Source: an uncultured delta proteobacterium (GTDB taxonomy: Bacteria > Desulfobacterota > Binatia > UBA9968). From it: DNA of 64,000 bases. The stretch's first letter is position 1. Every line of letters begins with the position of its first letter. Position numbers and translations under genes: made by a program. The DNA is taken from positions 32,001-96,000 of the forward strand of contig CAWDPO010000014.1 in NCBI GenBank assembly GCA_963804165.1, read 5' to 3'. This document shows, one piece after another, positions 32,481-47,649 of the stretch. A model generated the notes under the pieces. That model was given only the letters and a program-made list of their open reading frames with translations, had not been told where the DNA came from and ran no database searches.

Positions 32481-34367
32481 CTATAGCTCGCGATCCTGTG
32501 TGGATTGATAAACAACTACACGGTCGCGGCCGGCGTTCTTGGCGGCGTACAGGGCCACGTCTGCCGCCCGCAATAATTCACTTGGGTCGGCGGTGTCATC
32601 ACCCGCCTGCGCAACGCCCGCCGACGCAGTCAGAGCGCTGAGCACTTGTTCGCCGTGGGGAATCTGCAGTTCCTTGATTTGCGTCCGAATCTGTTCCACG
32701 CGTTGCTGGGCATCGGCAATGGATGAGTCGGGCAGCACGAGGACAAACTCCTCCCCGCCGTAGCGGCACGAGATGTCGCTTTTGCGCAATTTTCCACGCA
32801 ACAGTCGTCCCAACTCGCGCAACAGCGAGTCACCCGCATCGTGGCCGTAAGTATCGTTGAAGCGCTTGAAGTCGTCTAGATCGAGCATCGCCACACAGAG
32901 CGGCGCATGGGCGCGCCGGGCACGATGCAGCTCGCGCGGCAGGGTTTCTTCAAGATAGCGCCGGTTAAATAGCCCGGTCAGCGGATCGTGAATCGCCTCT
33001 GCCCGCAGCTCCTCTCGCAATTTCAGGTTGGACAAAGATAGCTTGATCGATTCGCTCACCGTCGCGGCCAACTGGAGCTGGCTAACTTGGTGTTTACTCC
33101 TTTTGGCGGGAGCGCCGACGAGACAAAAAACTCCCAACATTTCGCCCTGCACGGTCAACGGCACGCACAGGTAGCTAGTCTCCGGTTGGCTGACAAAATG
33201 ACGGCACAACAAGCCGGCCTGCGGATCGACGACTTCATGCAGTTGGCCACGGCGCAGTGCCCAACAATCCTCCAGTGAAAAGATCGACTCGCCGAGCGGC
33301 CGCTCGCCCCAGCGCGCAACCATTTCAAGATACTGACCCGACGCATGCAGAACCGCCAGGCATCCGGCCTGCCCGTCAAAGAGCTCGCCGGCGGCGAGGC
33401 CAACCACCTTGTAAGCTTCTTCCTGAGTGGTGCAGCTCTGCAGGAGATCGTCCATGCTGATGAGCGCCTGCATTTCACTGTCACGCCGCTGCAGTTCAGC
33501 AACCAATGCCATCAACTCCTCATTGGTTTTTCGTACGCTTTCCGTTGCCAGTTTGGGGGCCGTGACGTCGCGCACAATGGCGATTACCATGCTGCCGCTT
33601 TCCGTAGTCATCGGACTCAGCATAATGTCTACAGGGAATTCGCTCTTGTCTTTGCGCTGACCGAACAGTTCCAAACCGACTCCCATGGGTCGCATGCGCG
33701 GATCGGCAATGTAGCCGGTGATGTGTTTGACGTGCCGTTCTCTAAACCGTTCGGGAATCAAGAACTCCACAGGTTTGTCCTGCAGCTCGTTACGACTGTA
33801 ACCGAAAATAGACTCGACCTGAGCATTCATCTCGGTAATTTTTCCATGACGGTCGATCACCGCGATGGCGTCGGGAAACGACTCATACAGCCCCCTGGCG
33901 ATTTCAGCAAATCTGACGTCGGTGAGATCCCGGGTGATCAGCGAAAAACCCGCCAGTATTCCTTTCGCGCGCCGCATTGCGGTGATGAGCACATTGGCAA
34001 AAAAGCGCGAGCCGTCTTTGCGGACGCGCCAGGCCTGTTCTTCGTGGCGACCTTCGGACGCCGCAGTCTTGAGGACAAAGTCCGGCCGGCGGCGCTGAAT
34101 GTCTTCGGCGGGATAAAAACAGGAGAAGTGTTTGCCGAGAATCTCATCTTGCAGATAACCCGTAAGCCGCTCGGCGCCAATGTTCCAACTCGCCACGCGT
34201 CCCCGAGGATCGAGCGAGCAGACGGCGTAGTCCTTCGCGTTTTCGATAAGAAGACGAAGAGGCTCATTGCCTCCTTGCGCCGCTGTCTTTGTCCGCCGTA
34301 ACAAAGTTGGCAACGCTGGCGCTTTGTTGACTCCTTTGTCCGATGGCTTTTTCTTTCGCGGTTTCAC
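32481..34367 (-). CDS. PAS-PAS-GAF-GGDEF diguanylate cyclase
   Basis: Two PAS/PAC domains (RKDGSRF, RKDKSEFPV), DPLTGLFNRR, DLDDFKRFND, RYGGEEF. Confidence 0.9.
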   Translation of the reverse strand: MKPRKKKPSDKGVNKAPALPTLLRRTKTAAQGGNEPLRLLIENAKDYAVCSLDPRGRVASWNIGAERLTGYLQDEILGKHFSCFYPAEDIQRRRPDFVLKTAASEGRHEEQAWRVRKDGSRFFANVLITAMRRAKGILAGFSLITRDLTDVRFAEIARGLYESFPDAIAVIDRHGKITEMNAQVESIFGYSRNELQDKPVEFLIPERFRERHVKHITGYIADPRMRPMGVGLELFGQRKDKSEFPVDIMLSPMTTESGSMVIAIVRDVTAPKLATESVRKTNEELMALVAELQRRDSEMQALISMDDLLQSCTTQEEAYKVVGLAAGELFDGQAGCLAVLHASGQYLEMVARWGERPLGESIFSLEDCWALRRGQLHEVVDPQAGLLCRHFVSQPETSYLCVPLTVQGEMLGVFCLVGAPAKRSKHQVSQLQLAATVSESIKLSLSNLKLREELRAEAIHDPLTGLFNRRYLEETLPRELHRARRAHAPLCVAMLDLDDFKRFNDTYGHDAGDSLLRELGRLLRGKLRKSDISCRYGGEEFVLVLPDSSIADAQQRVEQIRTQIKELQIPHGEQVLSALTASAGVAQAGDDTADPSELLRAADVALYAAKNAGRDRVVVYQSTQDREL

Positions 34368-34561
34368 GTTCGATTTCCTTCGGTCATCGATTTTACATTT
34401 CTAGCAGAAGACGATTCTGTTTCCGAGTGCCGATTTAAAAAACCGGGACGCAAACAACGGCCAATCGGCACGCCTTGAACGCAGACGGTCATCTGAGATA
34501 GCTATAAGCAATTAGTGATTCGAAGGTTAGCATAGCTTTCAAGGAGTGAGGAAACAGGAAA

Positions 34562-35600
34562 ATGGCGGACGAACACAAACACGAACACAAAGGCGAGCAC
34601 GCGCACGACCACAAGCAAGATCACGGCCACGAGCACGGTCATTCCCATGGGCCCGACGACCAACATACGCACGCGCCCGATCACGGCCATTCGCACGATC
34701 GCGGCCAGTCCCATGACCACGGCCATGATCACGATCATTCGCATGAACACGCGCATGGTCACGAGCACGAGCACGAACACGGCTCCTCCCACGGTCATAG
34801 CCACGATCACAAGACGCGTTTTCACGATCCGGCGCACGCCGCCGAATTCGATCGGCGAGCGCTGTCGGGCATCCGCAGTTCGTTGACGGAGAAGTTAATC
34901 GAAATGTTAACCCTTAAAGGCGGCGAGCTCGTGCTCGATCTTGCAACGGGCACCGGAAGGGTCGCACGGCCGCTGTCCAAACATATGAAAGGTGGTCGCA
35001 TCGTCGGCGTAGATCAGGCGCTGGCGATGCTCGACGTCGGTCACCAGCACGAGGATGCGATTCCGCACTACAATCAGAGCGCCGGCGAGGCCGATAAGTT
35101 GCCCTTCAAAACCAACACTTTCGATCGCGCGTTTCGTCTCGTTTAGCCTGCATCATTTCAGCAATCCGTCGGGTGTCGTCGGCGAAGTGCTGCGCGTGCT
35201 CAAGAACAGCGGTCGCTTCGTGGTGCTCGATCCGATCATCGAAGAGGCGAAAGACGCCGTCGATATCGCACTCGAAACGAAGATCAATCAAGTTTTTCGC
35301 CGCACCCACGGCGATGATTTCCGCTTCCACACATCGAGCAGCATTCAGCGCTTGCTGACCAAAGCCGGTTACCGCGTGCCGCGCTGCAACGTGCTTTCTT
35401 TCTCCTTCAATCAAGAAGGCATGGACGGCATCCCCACCGGGCGCCACTGGCTCGAAGCCGCGCTGGAACTGGAAAAAGAAGCGCCGGAGCTCGCCGAGCG
35501 CATGAAGAAAAACTATTTCACCTGGCACGCCCACGGCGACCATGTGCACGTGAAGGGCGCGTTTTCTTACGCGTTAATCACAGGCGTCAAGCCGGCTTAA
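34562..35600 (+). CDS. Class I SAM-dependent methyltransferase with a His-rich N-terminal extension (apparent frameshift near 35140)
   Basis: About 30 His in the first ~85 aa; VLDLATGTG motif I; continues as FSLHHFSNP...VLRVLKNSGRFVVLD. Confidence 0.8.
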
Positions 35601-35607
35601 AAAGACT

Positions 35608-35631
35608 GTAGGGGCGCAGCATGCTGCGCCC
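35608..35631. repeat. GTAG-REP-like palindrome (second copy at 41564-41586)
   Basis: GTAG followed by the perfect 20-bp palindrome GGGCGCAGCATGCTGCGCCC; the second copy has an 18-bp palindrome. Confidence 0.75.
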
Positions 35632-35652
35632 TCTGATTAGGAGAGCGATGAC

Positions 35653-35913
35653 GTGAAGAAAGCCGACTTCCGAACTTTCTACCGCGACGCGCATGCCGTC
35701 GAATGCCTAACCGAGCGCGAGAAGATGCTCATCGGTCTCACTGTCGCCATGATGCGGCTCTGCGATCCGTGAGTGGATAGGCGCCTTGCGGACGCAAGGA
35801 AAGCGGGGATGACGGAAGAAGAGCTTGATGCGGCAGTGGATGTGATCGCCGCGGTGGATGCGGGCGTGCTGCAGTCGTTGAACCAGAGGATCAAAGCGAG
35901 GAACAAGGGGTAA
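35653..35913 (+). CDS. Putative selenoprotein, CMD/AhpD-like with CxxU (copy 1, 86 aa)
   Basis: AGGAG RBS and GTG start; MKKADFRTFYRDAHAVECLTEREKMLIGLTVAMMRLCDP-TGA(35770-72)-VDRRLADARKAGMTEEELDAAVDVIAAVDAGVLQSLNQRIKARNKG*; CMD-like pattern continues across the TGA; SECIS-like hairpin downstream. Confidence 0.82.
35784..35799 (+). promoter_or_regulatory. Putative bacterial SECIS hairpin
   Basis: CCTTGC-GGAC-GCAAGG, 11 nt after the in-frame UGA, G-initiated loop; identical in copies 2 and 4, one mismatch in copy 6. Confidence 0.72.
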
Positions 35914-35956
35914 CTCCCGCAGCCGCCGAGGACCACCTGGGTGGTACAAAGCCGGT

Positions 35957-36101
35957 GCTACCGAGACACTGAACAGCGTTTTCAACCAAGCTGGTCAGAA
36001 TATGCGCGAGGCAATCGAGTCCGATCTTGAAGGCTCGCGGCACGACTAAAGCGTTCTCACGCCCGAGCTCGTATTCCACCTACATTGACGTAACTGTTTA
36101 A
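35957..36101 (+). pseudogene. Collapsed hicA/hicB toxin-antitoxin remnant
   Basis: TLNSVFNQAG (HicA C-terminus-like) fused to NMREAIESDLEG...SSYSTYIDVTV* (HicB C-terminus-like); stop lies in GTTTAAC. Confidence 0.55.
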
Positions 36102-36107
36102 CCTCCG

Positions 36108-36260
36108 TTGTCGGGGTTGGTAGAGGGCTGGGGCGAATACCCGAAGGGCAATGATGAGCCGAGAATTCGGGCTACGTTACTTCGAGGAATTCGTACCGGT
36201 CAGCCGGCGGGCAGCGACCAGTTTATCGAAGTGATTGAACAGTTAGAGGTCGTGGTCTAA
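36108..36260 (+). pseudogene. C-terminal fragment resembling a Y1 (IS200/RAYT-like) transposase
   Basis: LSGLVEGWGEY...LLRGIRTGQPAGSDQFIEVIEQL recalls the RTGRPxGxxxF tail of Y1 transposases; no HUH motif remains; recognised from memory. Confidence 0.45.
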
Positions 36261-36340
36261 TAATGCGCACAGCCAGGCGCCTACTGAAATGCATCATGAG
36301 AAATTAGTATTATGCCCCGGAATTCTCGCCACAACTCAAC

Positions 36341-39300
36341 ATGAGTGAACTTAAGAGACACCCTGCCAAGCTGCCGCCGGAGCAGGCGGCGCTCCGAGCG
36401 AAGTGTTTTCACCCGTCGGGGACATTTGTCGAGTTTCCAATCGAAGACGTTGAGACATCAATCCCCGCCCGGTTTGAGAAGATCGTACGCAAATATCCCG
36501 ACCGAATCGCGATCAAATCAGCAAATCAACTGCTCACTTACACCGAGCTCAACTCCCAAGCCAATCGAATAGCCCACGCGATTGTAGATCAGCAAGGAGA
36601 TGAGGCGGAACCGATCGCGGTATTGCTTGAAAGCGCGATGACGTTGATGGCAGCGACAATCGGGGTTTTAAAGGCTGGGAAATTTGTTGCGCTTCTGGAT
36701 GCTTCCTTCCCGGATTCGCGTAATGCGGCCATATTGGAGGATTCTCAAGCGCAAGTGGTGATCACCAACCGAAAAAATGCTCCGCTAGTTAACAGAATCA
36801 CAAACCGTGATTGTCGATTGATGGATTTCGAATCCGCCAATTCGGGAACTTCGGACGATGACCTGTGGTTATCTGTCTCACCGAACGCGCTCGCATTCCT
36901 TGTGTATACGTCCGGTTCCACTGGACAGCCCAAAGGCGTCATGCAGGATCATCGGAGTCGCTTGCATCAATATAAGTGGAGTACAAACACGAATCACATT
37001 TGCGAACACGATCGGGCGAGCCTTCTGACTTCCGGTACGTCCAGTTCGGTGGTTGTTAGTCTTAGGACCTTGCTTAATGGTGCGATGCTTCTTCCATTTG
37101 ATATTCGTAGGAGAGGAGTCGACAATCTCGCCGGCTGGCTCTTGGGCGAGAAAATTTCCGTTTGCGTAATCAGCTCGCCACTTTTCCGCAGCCTTTGCGA
37201 AAGCCTAACGGGAAAGGAAGGATTTCCCGATCTTCGCCTCATCCGGTTGAGTAGCGAAACAGCTTATAAGAATGATTTTTGTCTTTATAAGAAATTTTTC
37301 CCCCCAGAATGCCTTCTTACCAATGGGTTATCCCCCACTGAAGCTGGAGCGTTGACAGACTATTTCATGGACCAAGAGACAGAGATTCCCGGTGACGAGA
37401 TACCCGTGGGTTATCCCTTGGAAGATATAGACATTTTGTTACTGGATGACCAGGGCAAGGAGGTTGGCTTCAATCAGGTGGGCGAGATAGCCGTGAAAAG
37501 TCGTTATCTCTCGTCGGGCTATTGGCGAAGGCCAGCGCTTACCGAAGCCAAATTTAGACGCGCTCTCGACGGCAAGGACAGCCGTCTTTATCTCACCGGT
37601 GATTTGGGACTTATGCTTCCTGACAGTTGTCTCCTTCACAGGGGACGCAAGGATTTCCGAGTGAAGGTCCGGGGCTATGGGGTCGAGATGGCGGAAGTAG
37701 AGACTGTTCTCCGGGATCATGCGGCCATCAATGACGGAGTTGTGGTGGCGCGCCCAAATGAATCGGGTGAGGCTCGTTTGGTTGCTTATTTTACTTCTCC
37801 CCGGAGGCCCGGCCCCAGCGTGAGCGAGTTGCGCCGTTTCTTGCAAGAGAAGCTTCCCGACTACATGATCCCGTCGGCCTTTGTGAGGCTAGACGCGATA
37901 CCTTTGACTCCAAATGGCAAGGTAGACCGAGAAGCGCTTCCCGACCCGAAAAACTCAAGACCTAGTCTCAATGCTCCGCCCGTCGCACCGCGGACTTCCA
38001 AGGAGGAGAAATTAGCAAAGATTTGGGCGAAGGAGCTGCACATCGATCAGATAGGAGTTCATGACAATTTTTTCGATTTAGGCGGCCATTCTCTATTAGC
38101 AATGCGAGTCATCTCGCAGGTTCGCGACCATCTACAGGCTGAATTGTCCCTGATTCAGTTTTTTGAAAGTCCGACTGTGGCTGCTCTCGCCGCTCGAATT
38201 GAACCGGCTCGTTCACCGCAGGACGGGACACCGGCTCCTTTTATACAGCCCGCTTCAAGGGACGGAAAACTCCTTCTTTCTTTTGCCCAACAGAGGCTAT
38301 GGTTCATGCACCAGCTCGACCCAGAAAGCTGTGCGTACAACCTGTTTTCTGCAACTCAGCTCACGGGCCGACTCAACGTGACGGCGTTGGAGCAGAGTTT
38401 CAACGAGATCATTGGGCGCCACGAGGCCTTGCATACCGTCTTTAGGTCGGTCAACGGACAGCCGTTCCAAGTTGTTCTCCCAGCTCTGACTATCAACCTT
38501 CCTGTCGTGGAATTGCGAGATATCGTTTCTCCGGCTGAGCGAGACGCGGAGCGTCGCCGCCTTTGCGCTGAGGAGGCCCGGCGACCCTTCGATCTGGCCA
38601 ACGGCCCTTTGCTACGGGCCACTTTACTAAGATCGACCGACGAAACGTACGTTCTGCTGCTGGTCCTACACCATATTATTTTCGATGGTTGGTCTAGAGC
38701 AGTCTTAGATCAAGAAATTTCCATAGCCTACGAGGCCTTGTCCTGCGGCCAATCTCCATCGCTGCCCGTGTTGCCGCTTCAGTATGCAGACTTTGCTCAA
38801 TGGCAGCGCCAGCAGCTACACGGCGAGGCGCTCGAAGGGCAACTGGCCTACTGGAAAAAGCAGCTTGAAACGCTCTCAATTTTGCAGTTGCCGAGTGATC
38901 GGCCACGACCAGCGATTCAAACTTCTAGAGGCGCAAGACAATCTTTCACGCTGCCCGAAGAACTCGTCGCGGGACTCAAAATGTTTGGGCGCCAGGAGGG
39001 CGCCACTCTTTTCATGACGTTGCTAGCGGCCTATCTGACATTGCTGGGCCGTTACACGGGGCAGAACGATATCGCGATTGGGGCTCCCATCTCCGGCCGG
39101 AACCGTAGCGAGTTCGAAAGTTTAATCGGGCTCTTTCTTAACATGTTGGTCCTGCGCACCGACTTGTCTGGCAATCCAACCTTTCGAGAGCTGCTCTCTC
39201 GCGCCCGAAAGGTTTGCCTGGAAGCTTATGCGAACCAGGATGTCCCTTTTGAAGAACTCGTCCAAGAACTGCAGCCGCTACGCAGTCTAAGTCACAATCC

Positions 39301-41473
39301 ACTATTTCAAGTAACCTTTGCGCTACAGAATAGCCCAACGAGCCTTCTCAAGCTGACCGGTATGACCGCACGAGATCTTAATCTGGGGTCAGGAATAGCA
39401 ACTTTTGATTTACACCTGTTCATGGTCGAGGAGGAGACAACCTTGAGCGGTTGGTTGGTTTATAACACGGATCTGTTTGATGCCGCGTCGATCGCCCGGA
39501 TGGTCAGGCATTTTCAAATGATACTGGAAGGCGTCGTCGCTAATCCCGACCAGCATATCTCGGATCTACCGCTACTCACGGAGGCCGAAAAGCATCAACT
39601 TTTGGTGGAGTGGTGCGATAGAAGGGAAGAATACACAAAAGACAGGTGTCTGCACCAGCGGTTTGAGGAGCAGGTAGTGCGTACGCCTGAGGCCCTCGCC
39701 GTGGTCTTTGAAGATCAGCAATTGACCTACCGAGAATTGAACCGGTCCGCAAATCGCATAGCGCGTCGATTGCAAGGACTGGGAGTTGGGCCTGATGTTC
39801 TGGTCGGCCTGTACGTCGAACGATCCATCGAGTTGATCATCGGCGTTCTGGGAATTCTCAAAGCCGGCGGGGCCTATGTTCCGTTCGACCCCAGTTATCC
39901 AGCGGATCGAGTAGAGTTCATGCTGAGAGATGCCGACGTATCGGTGCTGCTGACGCAGAAGCACCTGTCCACTCAATTACCTGCATGCGATTCCGCAGTG
40001 GTATACCTTGATGCGGAACATTTGAAAAATTCGTCCGACGACGCGAATGAAGCAGATCTTGAAAGCAGTGCCAAGCCGGATGATTTGGCATACGTGATCT
40101 ACACTTCCGGCTCTACCGGCAAGCCCAACGGCGTGTTGATCACGCATCGTAGTGCTGGCGCTTTTCTCAATTGGGCTCACAGCGCGTTTACCCAAGAAGA
40201 TTTCGCCGGCGTCATTGCATCGACCTCGATTTGCTTTGACTTATCCGTGTTTGAAATTTTTGCTCCGCTTACAGCCGGCGGGCAGGTTATCCTGGTTGAA
40301 AACGCTTTGGCGCTAGCCCACGTGGACGAGGCAGTGGCGCCAACTTTAGTGAACACGGTGCCGTCGGTCATGGCCGAGCTGTTGCGCCTTGGCGGGTTGC
40401 CGAAGTCGATTCGCACCGTGAATCTGGCCGGCGAGCCACTTAAGGCGAGCCTGGTTCGGCAGATCCATCAACAAACTTCCGCACAGCAGGTCTATGATCT
40501 TTATGGACCGTCGGAGACCACGACGTACTCGACTTACACGCAGAGAACGGCCGATGGTGCTCAAACGATTGGCCGTCCGATCGCCAACACGCAAATCTAT
40601 ATCCTGGATCCGCATGGGAATCCCGCGCCGATCGGCATACCGGGAGAGATTTACATTGGCGGGACGGGTTTAGCGCGCGGCTATTTGAATCGTCCTGAGC
40701 TGACTGCGGAGAAATTCATTGCCAATCCGTTCAGCACCGAGCGCGGGGCAAGGCTTTACAGGACCGGAGATTCAGCGCGGTATTTACCCGACGGAAATAT
40801 CGAGTTCCGCGGGCGCCTGGACAACCAAGTCAAGATCCGGGGATTTCGCATTGAGCTAGGGGAGATCGAAGCCGTGCTCAGTCAACACTCCAGACTCCGA
40901 GAGGCTGTCGTGCTCGTTAGAGAAGACAATCCTGGCGAGAAGCAGTTAGTGGCCTATACCGTCGCCGCTGCCGGCTTCATGCCTTCGGTCAATGAACTGC
41001 GCGCCTTTCTACAGCAGAAACTCCCGGAATACATGGTACCGTCCGCGTTTGTCATGCTCGTCAGCCTTCCATTTACTCCCAACGGTAAGGTGGACCGAAA
41101 GGCACTACCCGCACCACACCAAACCAGGCCTGAGCTGGAGGAAACTTTCGTCGCTCCGCGGACACCGACCGAGCAAACGCTCGTCGCAATATGGGGCAAA
41201 GTGCTCAAACTCGAAAAGGTCGGCATCCACGACAACTTCTTCGAGTTGGGAGGACATTCGTTACTTGCCACGCAAGTCATGTCCCGAATACGCAGTGCTT
41301 TTTCCATCGACCTGCCGCTACGCCGCATGTTCGAATCGCCAACGGTGGCGGAAATTGCGGTCATTATAACAGAAAGCCGAGCACAGCCTGTGAGCGAAGC
41401 AGCGTTTGCGCGTATGTTGTCTGAGGTAGAAGTCACGACCGAGGAAGAAGCGGAAAAAATCCTTGCAAAATAG
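36341..41473 (+). CDS. Non-ribosomal peptide synthetase, A-T-C-A-T, no thioesterase
   Basis: Two YTSGSTG A3 motifs, two GGHSL PCP motifs, one HHIIFDG condensation motif; acidic helical C-terminal tail. Confidence 0.93.
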   Translation: MSELKRHPAKLPPEQAALRAKCFHPSGTFVEFPIEDVETSIPARFEKIVRKYPDRIAIKSANQLLTYTELNSQANRIAHAIVDQQGDEAEPIAVLLESAMTLMAATIGVLKAGKFVALLDASFPDSRNAAILEDSQAQVVITNRKNAPLVNRITNRDCRLMDFESANSGTSDDDLWLSVSPNALAFLVYTSGSTGQPKGVMQDHRSRLHQYKWSTNTNHICEHDRASLLTSGTSSSVVVSLRTLLNGAMLLPFDIRRRGVDNLAGWLLGEKISVCVISSPLFRSLCESLTGKEGFPDLRLIRLSSETAYKNDFCLYKKFFPPECLLTNGLSPTEAGALTDYFMDQETEIPGDEIPVGYPLEDIDILLLDDQGKEVGFNQVGEIAVKSRYLSSGYWRRPALTEAKFRRALDGKDSRLYLTGDLGLMLPDSCLLHRGRKDFRVKVRGYGVEMAEVETVLRDHAAINDGVVVARPNESGEARLVAYFTSPRRPGPSVSELRRFLQEKLPDYMIPSAFVRLDAIPLTPNGKVDREALPDPKNSRPSLNAPPVAPRTSKEEKLAKIWAKELHIDQIGVHDNFFDLGGHSLLAMRVISQVRDHLQAELSLIQFFESPTVAALAARIEPARSPQDGTPAPFIQPASRDGKLLLSFAQQRLWFMHQLDPESCAYNLFSATQLTGRLNVTALEQSFNEIIGRHEALHTVFRSVNGQPFQVVLPALTINLPVVELRDIVSPAERDAERRRLCAEEARRPFDLANGPLLRATLLRSTDETYVLLLVLHHIIFDGWSRAVLDQEISIAYEALSCGQSPSLPVLPLQYADFAQWQRQQLHGEALEGQLAYWKKQLETLSILQLPSDRPRPAIQTSRGARQSFTLPEELVAGLKMFGRQEGATLFMTLLAAYLTLLGRYTGQNDIAIGAPISGRNRSEFESLIGLFLNMLVLRTDLSGNPTFRELLSRARKVCLEAYANQDVPFEELVQELQPLRSLSHNPLFQVTFALQNSPTSLLKLTGMTARDLNLGSGIATFDLHLFMVEEETTLSGWLVYNTDLFDAASIARMVRHFQMILEGVVANPDQHISDLPLLTEAEKHQLLVEWCDRREEYTKDRCLHQRFEEQVVRTPEALAVVFEDQQLTYRELNRSANRIARRLQGLGVGPDVLVGLYVERSIELIIGVLGILKAGGAYVPFDPSYPADRVEFMLRDADVSVLLTQKHLSTQLPACDSAVVYLDAEHLKNSSDDANEADLESSAKPDDLAYVIYTSGSTGKPNGVLITHRSAGAFLNWAHSAFTQEDFAGVIASTSICFDLSVFEIFAPLTAGGQVILVENALALAHVDEAVAPTLVNTVPSVMAELLRLGGLPKSIRTVNLAGEPLKASLVRQIHQQTSAQQVYDLYGPSETTTYSTYTQRTADGAQTIGRPIANTQIYILDPHGNPAPIGIPGEIYIGGTGLARGYLNRPELTAEKFIANPFSTERGARLYRTGDSARYLPDGNIEFRGRLDNQVKIRGFRIELGEIEAVLSQHSRLREAVVLVREDNPGEKQLVAYTVAAAGFMPSVNELRAFLQQKLPEYMVPSAFVMLVSLPFTPNGKVDRKALPAPHQTRPELEETFVAPRTPTEQTLVAIWGKVLKLEKVGIHDNFFELGGHSLLATQVMSRIRSAFSIDLPLRRMFESPTVAEIAVIITESRAQPVSEAAFARMLSEVEVTTEEEAEKILAK

Positions 41474-41609
41474 GGGTCAATGAAGAAAGCGATTCTGGCA
41501 CGGGAAGGCGGGGCATCTATTCCAGGGCAAGTGCTCAGTCATGAGTGCTGAGGTTTCGCATCAGTAGCGGCGCAGCATGCTGCGCCTTCTGCGTGACAGG
41601 AGCAATACT

Positions 41610-41924
41610 TTGACGAAAGCCGATTTTCGAACCTTTTATCGTGACGCGCATGCCGTCGAATGCCTAACCGAGCGCGAGAAGATGCTCATCGGTCTCACTG
41701 TCGCCATGATGCGGCTCTGCGATCCGTGAGTGGATAGGCGCCTTGCGGACGCAAGGAAAGCGGGGATGACCGAAGAAGAACTCGACGCGGCGGTCGACGT
41801 GATTGCCGCGGTGGACGCGGGAGTGTTGCGGTCGTTGAATCAGCGGATCAAGCAGAGGGGGCAAAAGCTAAGAATCTACTTGACTGCACCTGCACTACGA
41901 AACCGGTCCCTGAGTCCTGGTTAA
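41610..41924 (+). CDS. Putative CMD/AhpD-like CxxU selenoprotein (copy 2)
   Basis: AGGAG RBS and TTG start; TGA at 41727-29 is again codon 40; same hairpin; C-terminus extended by a different tail. Confidence 0.72.
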
Positions 41925-41966
41925 CCTCTTGACCTCCGTATGCTGGTCCTGTCTTAATCGGTCTCA

Positions 41967-42251
41967 ATGTCCATTAAGTTTGAATGGGATTCTCGTAAAG
42001 CTCGACAAAACCTTCGAAAGCACGGGATAGATTTTGATGAGGCGACCACAGTATTTGCCGATATACTCTCGGTTACGATCCCCGATCCCGATCACTCGGA
42101 GGACGACGAACGCTGGGTGACGATGGGTCTGTCGAATCGCCACCGTCTGCTGGTTGTGGTACATACTGAAGAAGAGGAAACGATCCGGATCATTAGTGTC
42201 CGAGCAGCAGACCGCCTTGAGCGGAGGAAACATGAAGAAGGGGACTCGTAG
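41967..42251 (+). CDS. brnT: BrnT family toxin
   Basis: FEWDSRKARQNLRKHGIDF...IRIISVRAADRLER. Confidence 0.9.
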   Translation: MSIKFEWDSRKARQNLRKHGIDFDEATTVFADILSVTIPDPDHSEDDERWVTMGLSNRHRLLVVVHTEEEETIRIISVRAADRLERRKHEEGDS

Positions 42252-42522
42252 AAACGACAAAATGCGCAATCACTATGACTTTACCGGTGGAGTTCGCGGC
42301 AAGTACGCGCACAGGTACGCCGAAGGCACCAATGTGGTCGTGCTTGATCCCGACGTGGCGCGGTTGTTTCCTAATCGTCAGGCGGTAAATGAGACGCTGC
42401 GGGCGGTAGCCCAGATTGTTGAGATACAGGAGCGAAGGCAGGACGGCATTAAAAAGGCCGTCGCACGTGACCGCCGCACGGGCGTTGGTCGGAAAGATCG
42501 TGAGCGGTCTCGTTCGGGGTAG
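42232..42522 (+). CDS. BrnA-type antitoxin
   Basis: MRNHYDFTGGVRGKYAHRYAEGTNVVVLDPDVARLFP...VNETLR. Confidence 0.82.
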   Translation: MKKGTRRNDKMRNHYDFTGGVRGKYAHRYAEGTNVVVLDPDVARLFPNRQAVNETLRAVAQIVEIQERRQDGIKKAVARDRRTGVGRKDRERSRSG

Positions 42523-42591
42523 GCGGGTGATCAGCAGTGCTAGCCGAAATCAAGCAATAAAGACCGGTTATAACGGCTTCCTTTGTAAAAG

Positions 42592-42658
42592 CCTTTTTAT
42601 CGAGCGTGATGCTCATCGGTCTCACCGTCGCGATGATGCGGCTTTGCGATCCATGAGT
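42592..42658 (+). pseudogene. Selenoprotein gene fragment (copy 3, ends just after the TGA)
   Basis: ATGCTCATCGGTCTCACCGTCGCGATGATGCGGCTTTGCGATCCATGAGT matches copy 1. Confidence 0.85.
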
Positions 42659-42870
42659 ATGAGCCTTTACGGGAAACGCGAAACAGGAAACAACTGCGTC
42701 CCAATCCTTTGGCTCCCTGGGAATTGCGCGTCGGTTCGTTGCGGGTTTTCTATGAAGTAGATGCTGGGGAACCGGGCCTCGTGAATGTCCTCGCTATCGG
42801 AATCAAAAAAGGGAATCTCCTGATCATTGCAGGTAGGAAATACACATATGAAGGCAATGAAACTGCCTAA
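42658..42870 (+). pseudogene. 5'-truncated RelE/ParE-family toxin
   Basis: Manual translation YEPLRETRNRKQLRPNPLAPWELRVGSLRVFYEV...VNVLAIGIKKGN; no in-frame start upstream. Confidence 0.7.
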
Positions 42871-43148
42871 AAGAGATCCAATCATTTCTCGAGGTTGCGG
42901 AAACCGCGAAAGAAGACACGCTGGTCTTTACCAAGAAGAAACGACCGGTCGCTGCTCTGGTCTCTCTCCGAAAGGTGGACCGGGATTCGCTTGCGTTGAG
43001 TACCAATCCGCAGTTTTTGAGAATCATCGAGATCGCGAGAAAAGAATTTCGGGCGGGCAAAACGATTTCAATCGAGGCATTACAGAAAAAGTTTGGCGTA
43101 AGGATGCGGGCTTCGAGAAAAGCGCGCCGCGGCGCGGCCCCGCGTTAA
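42848..43148 (+). CDS. Phd/YefM-like antitoxin (apparent frameshift near 42870)
   Basis: MKAMKLPK / EIQSFLEVAETAKEDTLVFTKKKRPVAALVSL...SLALSTNPQFLRIIEIARKEFRAGKTIS. Confidence 0.68.
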
Positions 43149-43167
43149 CCGAGGTGTCCGATTCCGG

Positions 43168-43382
43168 CGACGTGCGGTCGAATGCCTGCTCGAACGCGAG
43201 AAGATGCTGATCGGTCTTACCGTCGCGACGATGCGGCTCTGCGATCCGTGAGTGGATAGGCGCCTTGCGGACGCAAGGAAAGCGGGGATGACGGAAGGAG
43301 AATTAGATGCTGCCGTCGATGTGATCGCCGCGGCGTGCTGCAGTCGCTAAATCAGCGGATCAAGCAGAGAAGCAAGACGTAA
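43168..43382 (+). pseudogene. Selenoprotein gene copy 4 (5' truncated, 10-nt deletion)
   Basis: TGA at 43249-51 with intact hairpin; GTGGATGCGG missing near 43332. Confidence 0.85.
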
Positions 43383-43451
43383 AGATTGGAGTCGAGGACT
43401 ACATCGGGACCATATGACAGAAGGTCTGTAGGTCATTGGTTAGGCATTGCT

Positions 43452-43889
43452 TTGGCGAGTACTGTAGAAATTCCATTTACCGGCGGTTGCGCGTGTGGCG
43501 CTATCCGCTACGAATGTCTCGCATCACCACTTCGAATGCTCAATTGCCATTGTCGCGATTGCCAAGTTGCGAGTGGAAGCGCGTTCTCGCCAACCTTGAT
43601 TATGGCAAGTAGCGCCGTGAAGGTGACGAAAGGCCAGCCCACACACTTTGAGAAGCTCGCCGAAAGCGGCAACACCGCGAAGCGTGCATTTTGTTCCGCC
43701 TGCGGCACGCCATTGTTTGCGTCGAGTTCGGCGGGGGCGGAATATGTTGGTGTAAGAGCGGCGAGCCTCGACGATCCCAGCTGGTTCAGGCCGGAGGCGA
43801 ACGTCTGGGTCGGAAGTGCCCAACCGTGGGATTGCCTCGATCCAACAATACCAAAATTCGAAAAGAATCGACCGCATGCCAAGCAGTGA
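43452..43889 (+). CDS. GFA family protein bounded by cassette-like GTTAGGC/GCCTAAC
   Basis: GGCACG, CHCRDCQ, FCSACGT; start uncertain. Confidence 0.85.
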   Translation: MASTVEIPFTGGCACGAIRYECLASPLRMLNCHCRDCQVASGSAFSPTLIMASSAVKVTKGQPTHFEKLAESGNTAKRAFCSACGTPLFASSSAGAEYVGVRAASLDDPSWFRPEANVWVGSAQPWDCLDPTIPKFEKNRPHAKQ

Positions 43890-43918
43890 GAAGGCAAGTG
43901 CCTAACACCTGATCCCAT

Positions 43919-43996
43919 GTCGATGTGATCACCGCGGTGGACGCGAGAGTGCTCCAGTCGTTAAACCGGCGGATTAAGCAAAGGAGCCAGATATAA
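43919..43996 (+). pseudogene. Selenoprotein gene copy 5 (3' end only)
   Basis: Translates as VDVITAVDARVLQSLNRRIKQRSQI*. Confidence 0.85.
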
Positions 43997-44204
43997 CTTC
44001 CGAAGCGGACGGCCAAAAAAGAAAAAATGTGATTCCGATCGAAAAGGTCCCCTCTCACCTCATTCCCCATAAGCCGCCATCTCTGGAGCCATCAACCTTG
44101 ACGTATAGTAAGAGAATGTATGACGCGCCATCAGAACCATGTCGATCAAAACCCTTCCGCCCAGCTCCCATGTCGCTCGTTGACGCAGCTGTTGCATTTC
44201 ACGC

Positions 44205-45731
44205 ATGGAATTCAAGCGCCTCGTTGCTGACATGACAGAGAATCCAGGGCGTGGAATCGTCCACGCGCGGTTTATTCACTATTTTCTCCTTCTCTTACCG
44301 ATGGGGTTGGCGGCGGCTCTCAGCTTCTATTCGATCGCTGACAAGAGCTTGTGGTTAGACGAAGCGTTCAGTGTAGCTCTGGCGCGCCTTGATTGGTCGG
44401 AAATGTGGCGAGTGATAACCGTCCGCGAGTCCAACATGGGACTCTACCACGTGTTGCTCCACTACTGGGTGCAGCTTGGCACCGGGGAATTTGCGGTCAG
44501 ATCCCTGTCGGCAATCACGGCAATCGTCTCGATTGCTCCTGTATATGCGATAGGCGCTCGCCTGTTCGGAGTAAACACGGGAATCATCGCCGCGTTATTG
44601 CTGGCGATGAACGCTTTCTTCATTCAATATGCCCAAGAGGCCAGAGGTTACGCTCTTGTTCTTCTGCTCTCAGCCGCCTCGGCATACCTCTTTCTTAAAG
44701 CGATCGATAAACCCTCTGTAAAGAGCTGGGGCGCTTATGCTGCAATTGGCGCTCTCTCCATTTATGCGCATTTCTTTGGCGCATGGGTCATAGCGGCGAA
44801 CTTTCTGTCCGGCTTAGCCGTCCGAGGGCTTGCACAAAAGAGGAATCTCGTCGTCAGCAACCTAGTTATCGCCCTTCTCGTCAGCCCTCTGCTTGTATCT
44901 ATCCTGGCCCCGCATGCTCATGATTCGCATCTCGGTTGGCTAGCGAAGCCATCGCTCCAGACATTCACTCGTTTTTTCAACGCGCTCACCGGTTATGGAG
45001 GCCCCGCCCTGGTCATCGTCCACTCCGTAGTCTGCGGCTTCGCTCTGCTCTCGGCATCGGCCCGGCAGCGAAGAGCCCACGGCAGTTTGATCACCTGGAA
45101 CTATGCTTTTTTATGCACTTGGCTTTTCCTGCCCGTGCTTGGGAGTTTTTTGCTCTCAATCGTATTCAAACCGATCTTCCACCCTCGATATCTGATCATT
45201 TCGCTGCCGCCACTTGTATTGATTGCGGCAGCGGGTGTGCAGAACCTGCGGCCGGCGTGGCTCAAACTCGCTACTGTGCTGTTGCTCTTGGTCCTTTCGA
45301 GCCGGGGTCTTGTGGCGTTGTATTCGGGGCGTTGTTGCCAGAAGGAGAACTGGAGAGCAGCCACCAAGTATGTGCTCGACAATAGCGTGGCCGGTGATGG
45401 TATGGTATTTCAAGCGCCGTACGCCCGGATAGCATTTGAATACTACTTGCAAGCGCTGGGTTCTCAATCCAGGGCCCTGCAACCAGTAGTACCATCAGAC
45501 CCTTGGGGGACACTCGATCTGACCAAGAGACGGTCCGAATGGCTGCATCGCAGCCCGCAAGAGGACCAACGGCTATGGCTCATTTTGGTTTACCAAAGTT
45601 TCGCAAAAGGACCGAGCCCCGGGATTTCCGGTTGGCTGCCGGCAAGCTTCCAAAGCCAGTACTGTTTTCGGGGAATGCAGTCTTTTCAATCGATTGAAGT
45701 GATTCAGTTCCAGCCTTGCTCACGGCCATAG
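44205..45731 (+). CDS. GT-C membrane glycosyltransferase (family 39/PMT-ArnT-like)
   Basis: SLWLDEAFS, YAQEARGYAL, many TM helices, ENWRAA. Confidence 0.82.
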   Translation: MEFKRLVADMTENPGRGIVHARFIHYFLLLLPMGLAAALSFYSIADKSLWLDEAFSVALARLDWSEMWRVITVRESNMGLYHVLLHYWVQLGTGEFAVRSLSAITAIVSIAPVYAIGARLFGVNTGIIAALLLAMNAFFIQYAQEARGYALVLLLSAASAYLFLKAIDKPSVKSWGAYAAIGALSIYAHFFGAWVIAANFLSGLAVRGLAQKRNLVVSNLVIALLVSPLLVSILAPHAHDSHLGWLAKPSLQTFTRFFNALTGYGGPALVIVHSVVCGFALLSASARQRRAHGSLITWNYAFLCTWLFLPVLGSFLLSIVFKPIFHPRYLIISLPPLVLIAAAGVQNLRPAWLKLATVLLLLVLSSRGLVALYSGRCCQKENWRAATKYVLDNSVAGDGMVFQAPYARIAFEYYLQALGSQSRALQPVVPSDPWGTLDLTKRRSEWLHRSPQEDQRLWLILVYQSFAKGPSPGISGWLPASFQSQYCFRGMQSFQSIEVIQFQPCSRP

Positions 45732-45767
45732 ATGTGGGAGACAAGGGGACGGGAACCTTTTGCCTTC

Positions 45768-45951
45768 CCGAGCAGGTGAAGATGATAACGGTCCGACCGT
45801 CACGATGCTGCGGCTCTGCGATCGTGAGTGGATAGGCGCCTTGCGGACGCGAGGAAAGCGGGGATGACGGAAGAAGAACTCGACGCCGTCGTGGACGCGG
45901 GAGTTTTGCAGTGGCTGAATCAGCGGATCAAACAGAGAAACCAAGACCTAA
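45768..45951 (+). pseudogene. Selenoprotein gene copy 6 (most degraded)
   Basis: CTCTGCGATCG-TGA(45825-27)-GTGGATAGGCGCCTTGCGGACGCGAGG; internal deletion of about 18 nt. Confidence 0.85.
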
Positions 45952-46971
45952 AGAATGGAGTGATGCAGTGTTGGAGTCATGGATTCGTTGTCGATTCGCT
46001 GTCGTAGCGATTAACTGCTGGTTTTTCGCATTCATTCTAGCTGTGACGCCGGCCTTAGCCCTAGACAAGCTGCGCATTTCCTACGCTTCTGTCACTGGCA
46101 ACACCGCTGGGATTACTTATATCGCCCAGCGCGCCGGGTTATTCGAGAAACAGGGGCTGGACGTTGAATTGATTCTGATCACCGGTGGGCCGGCGTCGAT
46201 CAGCGCTTTGTTGAACGCCGACGTTGATCTGGACATGCGCGCGCCGGTCGCGGCGCTGCAGGTGATGGCGCATGGAGTCAAGCTGACTTTTTTACTTTTT
46301 CAATCGAATACCCTCGAATACGACGTGGTGACACGGCCGGAGATCAAAGACATCAAGCAGCTTAAAGGCAAAAAAGTCGGCATCATCCGCTTCGGTGGCA
46401 TTTCCGAACTGATGGTGCGCTATCTGTTTCAAAAACTGGGCTTGGACGCGGACAAGGACATCGCCATTGTCCAGGTTGGCCAGGCACGCTTTGTCGCGAT
46501 GGAAAAGGGCGCCATCGACGCGACGGTTTTGCCTCCGCAGAGTCCGCCTATGCCAAGCGCAATGGCTTTCGCGTTCTCGACATGCCGACTCTGCCGTTTT
46601 TTGGCAGCACGATTGTCGCCGCGCCAGCTGTCGCGGCGAAGCGAGCCGATGTGATGACGCGGTACATGAAAGGCTATTTGGACGGGGTGCGGTTCTTTCT
46701 CAGCGAGCGAGAGCGGAGCAGCCAGTACCTCGCCGATCTGTTGCGCACGAAAGACCGCGATATGATCGATCTCGCGTACAGGAATCACCCGCAGCATCAG
46801 ATGGGCCGAAAGCCCTATCCGGACATGAACGCGGTCAAGGCGACGCTCGACATCATGAGCTCCCGCGATCCATTGGTGAAGAAACTCAAGGCGGAAGAGC
46901 TGTTCACCCTTGGCTATTTAAAGCAGCTCGATCAAAGCGGCTACATCGATCAATTGTATTCGGGTAAATAG
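45911..46971 (+). CDS. ABC transporter substrate-binding protein, NMT1 type (apparent frameshift near 46545; start uncertain)
   Basis: IAQRAGLFEKQGLDVE, LKGKKVGIIRFGG; ORFs 45911-46654 and 46582-46971 join. Confidence 0.78.
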
Positions 46972-47046
46972 AGAAGCGGGCGAAAAGGCACTACATGGGT
47001 TCGCCTGTGGCGAAAGCCGCGCAGTGTTTTACGGCTGCTCGTTTGA

Positions 47047-47649
47047 TCAGCTAATCGATTTCAACCATTCCTGCCATCGCTCCATGTCACGGAATAAGGG
47101 CAGCGAGTCCGTTGTCGCTTCACTTCGCACTAGCTCGAAGCGTTTTTTGAAAAGCTGCTCGGCTTCGGGCTCGGTAAGAGGAAACGGCGGACCCGACGAC
47201 GGCCTTTGTCCATACAAAAAGACACCGATCAGTCTGCCTCGGGGCAACAGAAGATCCGCCATTCTGGTTACATACTCGGGCCAGCGCGTGGGAGTCATCG
47301 AACAAAGAAATGTCCGTTCGTAGATGAGGTCGAATCGGCGCTCGCCGAAGTCGTGCGTAAAGAAGTCTCCCAGAACAATCCGTTCAGCTAGAGACCCGAG
47401 CACCCGTTTGGCTTGGTCGACAGCGGCGGGAGAAAAATCTATTGCTGAAACATCGTAGCCGGCGGCATGGAAAGCCTGAATCTCGTAGCCGGAGCCACAT
47501 CCCGGAATTAATACTCTGCCGGGAGCAGAAGATCTCTCAAGAAATAATTTCAAGGCCGATGGAACACCACCGAAGTCCCAGGGCGTCTTACCCGTGACGT
47601 AGCGGACCGTCCAGAAATCTGGCTGGTTATTATCGGAAGGATTGTCCAT
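47047..47649 (-). CDS. Thiopurine S-methyltransferase-like SAM methyltransferase
   Basis: FWTVRY...TPWDFG, VLIPGCGSG, YERTFLC, GPPF. Confidence 0.82.
   Translation of the reverse strand: MDNPSDNNQPDFWTVRYVTGKTPWDFGGVPSALKLFLERSSAPGRVLIPGCGSGYEIQAFHAAGYDVSAIDFSPAAVDQAKRVLGSLAERIVLGDFFTHDFGERRFDLIYERTFLCSMTPTRWPEYVTRMADLLLPRGRLIGVFLYGQRPSSGPPFPLTEPEAEQLFKKRFELVRSEATTDSLPLFRDMERWQEWLKSIS

Follow-up and report, generated by a model that had tools for sequence, protein, structure and literature searches.

A small selenoprotein gene, here called Sel, is present in six copies in a 64,000-nt stretch of a metagenome-assembled genome (MAG) of Candidatus Binatia. This stretch, referred to as the window, corresponds to G000:C14:32001-96000, where G000 is the source genome (7.5 Mb in 46 contigs, 81% completeness, 5% contamination) and C14 its contig. 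The 86-codon gene was located by repeat finding, pairwise alignment to the first copy and blastn, and all copies lie on the + strand between 35653 and 45945. The initial annotation, which had listed six copies of a CxxU gene on this strand, could thus be verified. With nine Sel queries, sensitive blastn against the whole genome returned the six places in the window and one spurious match (E 0.003). The copies are designated c1 to c6 from proximal to distal and are given together with their neighbours in Table 1. G-numbers denote genomes and L-numbers Sel loci from relatives' genomes or from metagenome contigs.

Table 1 Positions of the Sel copies and of the neighbouring features in the window
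Feature	Position	Strand	Description
Methyltransferase gene	34562..35600	+	His-rich, S-adenosylmethionine-dependent; Pfam Methyltransf_25/11; conserved left neighbour of Sel (synteny in relatives)
Palindrome	35608-35635	.	Perfect, GGGGCGCAGCATGCTGCGCCCC, between methyltransferase gene and Sel; second copy ahead of c2 (41564-41591)
c1	35653-35914	+	Intact AhpD-like (CMD) selenoprotein gene; UGA 35770-35772; selenocysteine insertion sequence (SECIS)-type hairpin 35784-35799
hicAB remnant	35915..36098	+	hicA C-terminus joined to hicB C-terminus
Open reading frame (ORF) remnant	36102-36257	.	52 codons, between hicAB remnant and promoter region of the following gene
Nonribosomal peptide synthetase (NRPS) gene	36341..41473	+	1710 aa, domains A-T-C-A-T; cargo of newest unit
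c2	41610-41924	+	Intact ORF, TTG start, 19 additional C-terminal codons
BrnT toxin and putative antitoxin	41967..42522	+	Pfam for BrnT; antitoxin without Pfam match; cassette also in L090, 80.6%
c3	42608-42658	+	51-nt internal piece; extends to ~42592 allowing a 5-nt gap
ParE/RelE-family toxin (5'-truncated) and Phd-like antitoxin	42659..43166	+	Homology to intact pair in L114
c4	43167-43382	+	Relic, deletions of 4 nt and 10 nt; SECIS hairpin retained
GFA-family protein	43386..43889	+	Pfam
c5	43919-44006	+	3'-terminal relic, gene positions ~184 to end
GT-C / PMT_2 glycosyltransferase	44205..45731	+	Pfam; gene and its relic junction also in L086, 88.7%
c6	45761-45945	+	Oldest relic; deletions of 1, 1 and 18 nt; runs into native binding-protein gene
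NMT1-type substrate-binding protein	45911..46971	+	Native right neighbour; Pfam, synteny

The two proximal copies c1 and c2 are intact and the four distal copies c3 to c6 are relics with varied 5' ends, as had been noted before. In pairwise alignments to c1, the identity was 262/297 (88.2%) for c2, 47/51 (92.2%) for c3, 190/231 (82.3%) for c4, 69/89 (77.5%) for c5 and 155/205 (75.6%) for c6. It drops with distance, with the exception of the short c3, which is situated in the conserved core. The 5' ends of copies and relics span gene positions -70 to +184. All relics retaining the 3' end contain gene positions 184 to end, and secondary deletions have occurred. Between c3 (gene positions ~57-122) and c5 (184 to end) no sequence is shared. 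The homology of c2 to c1 begins at 41542 and includes the upstream intergenic DNA of c2 together with its own palindrome. The palindrome GGGGCGCAGCATGCTGCGCCCC resembles repetitive extragenic palindromic sequences; about ten similar copies occur in G000, including contigs C9, C17, C35 and C41. At the distal end, the reported contact of c6 with the binding-protein gene was found again, and the abutment is the same as the Sel-binding protein order in G007 (L032).

The Sel product contains a CMD domain (PF02627, E 1.8e-10, 41.1 bits against a Pfam cut-off of 23) and the redox motif C-D-P-U, i.e. CxxU with an in-frame UGA. Downstream of this UGA lies the hairpin CCUUGC-GGAC-GCAAGG with a 6-bp stem and a GGAC loop. 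This SECIS-type hairpin was invariant across 155 pattern-matched copies, the search pattern permitting a few degenerate positions. Sel matches were obtained in 46 of the 61 genomes searched, G000 and 45 relatives, and each full-length homologue has exactly one in-frame TGA (this tally and the one for ComEC given below include the unpublished genomes G005 and G035, on which no individual statement depends). Of the selenocysteine machinery, tRNA-Sec and the SelB wing domain were found in G000. The survey by Zhang and Gladyshev (2008, PMC2398784) presents AhpD-like 2 selenoproteins, with pfam02627 and CxxU, as a known family. Judged from CMD domain, C-x-x-U motif and SECIS-type hairpin, Sel is a member of it. 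Compared with these selenoproteins the gene is ordinary, and the novelty lies solely in its proposed role as recombination anchor. Between c1 and c2, 20 synonymous and 4 nonsynonymous differences were counted; the computed dN/dS of 0.046, with dS ~0.47 overall, agrees with the earlier statement that they differ mainly at synonymous sites. On the chromosome of G053, a complete genome from a different family of the order, two full-length Sel genes (L033, L034) were seen ~20 kb apart.

Throughout the class, methyltransferase and Sel form a conserved pair; the DNA between Sel and the core genes downstream is variable. In G007 (L032) methyltransferase, Sel, binding protein and amidohydrolase follow each other uninterrupted. 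Other relatives carry 0.05-6.4 kb of dissimilar DNA 3' of Sel, and the first core gene recognised beyond the insert varies: the binding protein (starting at residue 13, 24 or 50), TPMT or the amidohydrolase; otherwise none of them lies within 10 kb. The variation of cargo among relatives, whose absence the initial annotation had named as a refutation, is present when the loci are compared. For metagenome contigs, scanning with the SECIS core gave 76 loci having flanking DNA, 62 of them with full-length Sel. Among 20 non-redundant relatives' loci, four (L023, L027, L028 and L030; E <=1e-7) carry a same-strand relic 3' of intact Sel. For metagenome contigs with 1 kb or more of downstream DNA the figure is 9 of 37, and with 2 kb or more it is 6 of 21. 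The spacing between intact Sel and relic in metagenome contigs was 514-4219 nt. With a threshold of E up to 1e-3, 11 metagenome contigs with a downstream relic were counted.

Simpler states of the array were identified in other contigs. L114 has the order methyltransferase-Sel-ParE/Phd-relic and matches window 42656-43371 at 82.7%. In L090, Sel is followed by BrnTA (80.6% to 41955-42514) and a relic, beyond which the ParE cassette begins (88% to 42657-42773). Judged from this contig, a single deletion removed the 3' part of c3 and the first ~34 toxin codons. L148 carries Sel, a hicA remnant and the upstream region of the NRPS, with 96% identity to the window. L122 consists of a GGDEF gene (90%), methyltransferase (84%), Sel (88%), a cassette X and a relic continuing as window 35704-38196 at 96.5%. 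This relic is a 5'-truncated c1-like copy with cassette X ahead, and cassette X with its junction also occurs in G025 (L027). L086 has the order Sel-GT-C-relic, with 88.7% identity to 44275-45862 and the same junction as in the window. The junction family of c4 was also found in L106 and L114. The contigs form a series with ParE first, then BrnTA ahead, the NRPS unit ahead and X ahead, which is the window order from distal to proximal.

Two pairs of tails link states before and after an insertion. The sequence after the relic of L090 is the sequence after the intact Sel of L114, and both continue into ParE/Phd. The relic of L122 and its tail match c1 at 62/65, 62/63, 65/67 and 39/39. These two matches show that a relic is the former resident Sel without its 5' part, with the old downstream DNA still attached. 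The former resident gene of the window locus is c2. The relic was also considered as the attC-like 3' end of the upstream cassette; this was ruled out, as relic tails travel with the downstream cargo. With the nested states in L114, L090, L148 and L122 and the two before/after pairs, the polar, stepwise hotspot suggested in the initial annotation is corroborated. The relic topology leaves homologous recombination and an in-gene integrase unseparated, because both yield it.

The DNA 3' of methyltransferase-Sel in soil Binatia is probably an integrase-free insertion hotspot growing by sequential displacement, a reading we hold with fair confidence. Donor DNA from relatives would bring cargo preceded by a Sel allele of its own or by part of Sel, and would recombine with the resident locus via the homology of methyltransferase and Sel. 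The far end would be closed by an illegitimate join or by a join through a Sel relic already on the donor DNA. The outcome would be an intact proximal Sel, new cargo and then the 5'-truncated ex-resident copy with its old 3' flank and the older cargo, and repeated rounds would give a polar array. Afterwards, the relics would undergo small deletions and partial homogenisation by gene conversion, and would offer extra homology for reshuffling. The data show the copies and their polarity, the origin of a relic from a former resident gene, junctions in common with other contigs, gene conversion and the lack of an integrase. We infer how the DNA enters and by which molecular steps it is built in, be it through a circular intermediate or through one-sided homologous recombination completed by illegitimate joining.

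The right-hand join of the NRPS unit lies ~20 nt past the methyltransferase stop codon. As this join is located before the complete intergenic region of c2, the left crossover must have taken place in or upstream of the methyltransferase gene. L122 combines diverged upstream genes with a relic-NRPS block like that of the window. This agrees with a left arm of long homology and a join inside Sel, as in the homology-facilitated illegitimate recombination put forward for the Vibrio type VI secretion arrays (PMC5361080); other recombination histories fit also. The relics L122f and L027f have a common decayed stretch of the first ~35 nt, including a 6-nt gap, beside cassette X. Beyond it they agree at 51/67, and in the tails at 16/31. 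In L122f the first ~35 nt accompany cassette X and the remainder is of the resident type, which places a crossover inside the relic. Such a mosaic relic implies that homologous exchange within relics acts too. The common junctions and the mosaic relic fit a re-use of relics as homology, analogous to the circular-intermediate model for Rhs. Over 22 kb, the longest exact match between window and relative was located in Sel in 9 of 17 comparisons, in the methyltransferase gene in 5 and in other genes in 3. To some extent this supports Sel as a suitable anchor owing to its SECIS and active-site constraint; as unique best stretch of identity, the SECIS core was borne out in part only.

The mechanism given in the initial annotation can be kept in part. 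It had cargo joined at the anchor and then imprecisely at the other end; the polar stepwise displacement holds, but a fresh illegitimate join may not have occurred each time; cargo-relic junctions are shared between diverged genomes. The comparison with homology-facilitated illegitimate recombination is in accordance with the missing integrase and with the missing common core (c3 and c5 are disjoint), but the mosaic relic shows homologous exchange as well.

The array could also have a mainly vertical history, with ancient local Sel duplications and unequal crossing-over, followed by unrelated indels between the copies and no import of alleles. AGG as third codon after the UGA seems to speak for this, as it is common to all 4 SECIS-bearing window copies and was found in only 4 of 151 other copies (L104 and three distant relatives). 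However, the homologues of c1, c4 and c6 in L122, L114, L106 and L086 carry CGG or CGC at this codon. Hence, AGG was spread inside this array by gene conversion. The 25 positions differing between c1 and c2 all lie within nt 1-33 and 162-245, with zero at nt 34-161, a further sign of gene conversion; outside the converted tract the window copies overlap by <90 nt. The dS of c1 and c2 is much higher outside the identical tract, and together with the low dN/dS it indicates divergence as functional genes in separate lineages. A vertical history would agree with junctions common with other contigs that have diverged about like core genes (80-89%), and with a cargo GC content of 51.6-55.4% near the window mean of 56.1%, so that composition gives no foreign mark. 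In contrast, the NRPS is 96.5% identical to L122 and ~96% to L148, and core genes reach just 84-90%. For L122, the relic-NRPS block at 96.5% compared with methyltransferase (84%) and GGDEF gene (90%) argues for exchange between lineages and hence for sequential displacement. Furthermore, the hicAB element is distal to GT-C in L086 and proximal to it in the window, i.e. the order is reversed. On balance, we regard a mainly vertical origin as very unlikely.

A chimeric join of strain variants in the MAG would be an artefact of assembly. The completeness and contamination of the MAG and single-base frameshifts in both flanking genes might point in this direction. Short-read contigs of other runs, however, span at least 4 of the 10 junction points, extending 31 nt or more to either side: both sides of c3 (record 29, with 3 mismatches and two 5-nt insertions), c5-downstream (record 22, exact, 43896-44046) and GT-C-c6 (record 7, exact, 45579-45901). 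They were drawn from 31 of 122 records, with the best run containing at most 0.14 of the sampled words, and are uninformative on coverage, copy number and absence of variants. The runs may come from the same source as the window; the bridges show that the junctions did not arise in a single assembly, but do not stand for independent populations. Homologous junctions also occur in the independent assemblies L086, L090, L106, L114 and L122. Truncated, indel-bearing copies with unlike ends are not expected from collapsed or concatenated haplotypes, and the 5.1-kb NRPS ORF is unbroken. An artefact is extremely improbable in our view. A Sel-to-Sel joint, as left by loop-out, was not among the short-read records listed, which at this depth permits no inference.

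The absence of an integrase was reported for the window and extends to the whole contig C14, on which no match to PF00589 was obtained; 21 such matches lie on other contigs of G000. PF00239 gave no match anywhere in G000. At the relatives' loci, none of the 125 cargo ORFs encodes an integrase according to Pfam. From the metagenome loci, 150 of the 170 ORFs 3' of Sel were scanned, giving 275 cargo ORFs in total with those of the relatives. One of these 150 is an integrase (L128, beside a tRNA gene, relative 78% identical), the sole integrase seen near any Sel. Regarding integron marks, no intI was found near the array, and neither of the 2 inverted-repeat pairs in 15 kb is located at cassette ends.

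Integrases targeting gene ends, as in tRNA/tmRNA islands, also leave 5'-truncated relics with retained 3' end. A recombinase encoded elsewhere could therefore insert small circular cassettes, with a Sel segment as attachment region, at a core in Sel or at a motif behind the stop codon, and the tandem array would reflect repeated use of the restored site. The cassette size of 0.5-2 kb is integron-like, and the 21 PF00589 matches on the other contigs could provide the enzyme. Junctions cluster at gene positions ~45-62, where the mapped crossover of L122f lies as well. The motif is a tandem direct repeat, GGRCNACA-N3-GGRCNACA, with an 11-nt period (8+3+8), often then GAACGC, 10-30 nt past the Sel stop codon. 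Both halves were found in 17 of 94 Sel 3' ends (e.g. L043:10245-10270, L113:8783-8805 and L106:613-635), and a degenerate form is present at window 43400-43420. It is non-coding, because the variable base alters the residue, and could be a putative regulator-binding or recombination site. The motif is absent from c1, c2, c5 and c6, and the 7.5 Mb of G000 contain 2 weak matches. Except for the one tRNA-linked case, no integrase was detected in or beside the window locus, the 20 relatives' loci and the 76 metagenome contigs. The 5' ends from -70 to +184, the lack of shared sequence in c3 and c5, the ragged right-hand boundary among relatives and the lack of inverted repeats at cassette ends also speak against a site-specific reaction. 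In addition, the tail motif remains with the downstream cargo, so that the relic is not the cassette's own end. Site-specific insertion is therefore considered unlikely.

Several points weigh against sequential displacement through homology. No donor sequence was found for any cargo outside the Sel locus. Many insertions are old, because most common junctions are just 80-89% identical between contigs, and much of the pattern could result from vertical inheritance and not from an active process. No ComEC was detected in G000 with its 81% completeness, although 29 of 30 relatives in the genus carry it. DprA is present; the findings on ComEC and DprA are permissive only, as the presence of a gene is no proof of competence. 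The joining of several cassette types and of the mapped crossover in the same part of the gene makes a preferred site possible, and the conserved tandem motif after the stop codon counts here as well. The relic geometry is the same as after integrase insertion into a gene end, so by analogy a trans-acting recombinase is possible.

A RecA-driven analogue of integrons is a further reading, tentative and in our opinion rather doubtful. Sel relics would be portable homology arms, and single-gene cassettes would loop out and re-enter the intact Sel of other Binatia species. Sel would be a cross-species landing pad whose near-invariant active-site and SECIS nucleotides give the longest perfect identity, and the cargo would consist of toxin-antitoxin, defence and small enzyme genes. 

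According to the initial annotation no system of this design had been described. This cannot be maintained, as two papers describe it. For the C-terminal displacement of Rhs genes, homologous recombination via a circular intermediate of tip and core fragment was proposed (Jackson et al. 2009, PMC2935791). There, an intact gene at the proximal end precedes displaced pieces that are truncated at the 5' side and retain a fragment of the conserved part, new ends enter at the conserved part, and the arrays are old and conserved like the present one. The variable part of Rhs is the gene's own toxic tip with its immunity gene (PMC2935791). In contrast, the anchor described here is the complete 86-codon redox gene Sel, itself unvarying, and the cargo of the window (BrnTA, ParE/Phd, HicAB, GFA, GT-C and NRPS) is unrelated to it.

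Kirchberger et al. (2017, PMC5361080) described sequential displacement of effector-immunity modules of the type VI secretion system in Vibrio cholerae and proposed homology-facilitated illegitimate recombination as its mechanism. The paper reports polar arrays by successive insertion at a conserved upstream anchor, intermediates in other strains and no integrase. The authors parallel the arrays with integrons and state that ordinary homologous recombination later transfers the completed arrays (PMC5361080). As there, the Sel array has an intact proximal gene with distal truncated copies and older modules, and simpler intermediates were found (L114, L090, L148, L122 and L086). The systems differ in that the Vibrio array replaces the old effector and keeps immunity genes alone, with an evident selective logic (PMC5361080). 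The Sel array contains dead housekeeping-type relics and heterogeneous cargo that is kept.

As in an integron, the array is polar, its cassettes are small and mostly consist of one gene or a toxin-antitoxin pair, and the newest adjoins a fixed entry point. Unlike in integrons, there are no intI, attI and attC hairpins, and the separators are host-gene relics, each belonging historically to the downstream unit. Tandem islands at the ends of tRNA/tmRNA or protein genes restore the target at one end and carry the displaced 3' fragment at the other, and can form tandem fragment arrays. Such islands depend on a tyrosine integrase that they encode themselves and on a fixed crossover core, neither of which was detected at the Sel locus.

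Integrase-free sequential displacement has been described at polymorphic-toxin loci and explained by selection for new toxin-immunity pairs. In our case, a small redox gene of an ordinary kind has the same architecture, with cargo unrelated to it, at about one quarter of the sampled loci and in an uncultured soil class. Because it recurs at an ordinary gene, the process may be a general route to toxin-antitoxin and defence islets. The relics are an ordered record of acquisition that can be compared across genomes. Furthermore, the SECIS constraint at the RNA level may turn a coding gene into a favoured recombination anchor between diverged species. Literature searches gave no paper combining "Binatia" and "selenoprotein" and none on integrase-free hotspots with gene fragments.

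Most of the cargo names proposed in the initial annotation could be retained: NRPS by its domains A-T-C-A-T, BrnT, GFA and GT-C by Pfam, the hicAB remnant and relE/phd by homologues of relatives. The identity of the hicAB remnant follows from the intact hicAB of L093, L127, L113 and L147 (for L127, Pfam HicA 1.3e-19 and HicB 1.3e-11), and the intact pair of L114 matches ParE_toxin (6.8e-5) and Phd (0.038). The name transposase remnant could not be verified for the ORF remnant at 36102-36257: Pfam gave nothing at E up to 0.1, and tblastx revealed no paralogue within G000. At 18 relatives' loci, Pfam assigned BrnT, MazF, DUF5615/DUF433, DUF4160, HEPN-AbiU2, a NucS-like nuclease, DUF4238 and Uma2 among the 125 ORFs, further CDF, GFA and GST genes and one IS200-like Y1 transposase (L028). 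The scanned metagenome ORFs include TIR (3), Mrr, P63C and DUF5677. The GFA cassette of the window was compared with the GFA-relic arrangement of G029 (L023) and L142; sameness could not be demonstrated, as the proteins align over 30 residues only. G000 contains 18 matches to IS200-like Y1 transposases, none of them on C14; in L028 such a gene adjoins the Sel relic.

Both flanking genes are split over two frames. In the methyltransferase gene, frameshift alignment to relatives revealed a 1-nt insertion near 35133, which is not in a homopolymer. The binding-protein gene shows T4 at 46527-46530 instead of the T5 of relatives, and an extra base at 46528 is present in one short-read contig. These single-base frameshifts may be genuine decay or errors. 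The start of the methyltransferase gene (34562-34800) is a long His-rich repeat of H-x-H units with a 6-18 nt period. This repeat, TPMT nearby and the recurrence of CDF efflux and GFA genes at relatives' loci hint at metal or metalloid handling as the role of the native neighbourhood. An Rfam scan of 34000-47500 with E up to 0.1 gave no match.

A tRNA gene is located directly 3' of Sel in the more distant relatives L048, L128 and L144. At L079:1282-1322 and L102:238-278, 41 nt from the 5' part of Sel precede the intact gene at a distance of ~0.9 kb, and G003 and G019 (L025, L029) have 1.1-1.2 kb of DNA between methyltransferase and Sel. Thus, insertions occur on the 5' side of Sel too.

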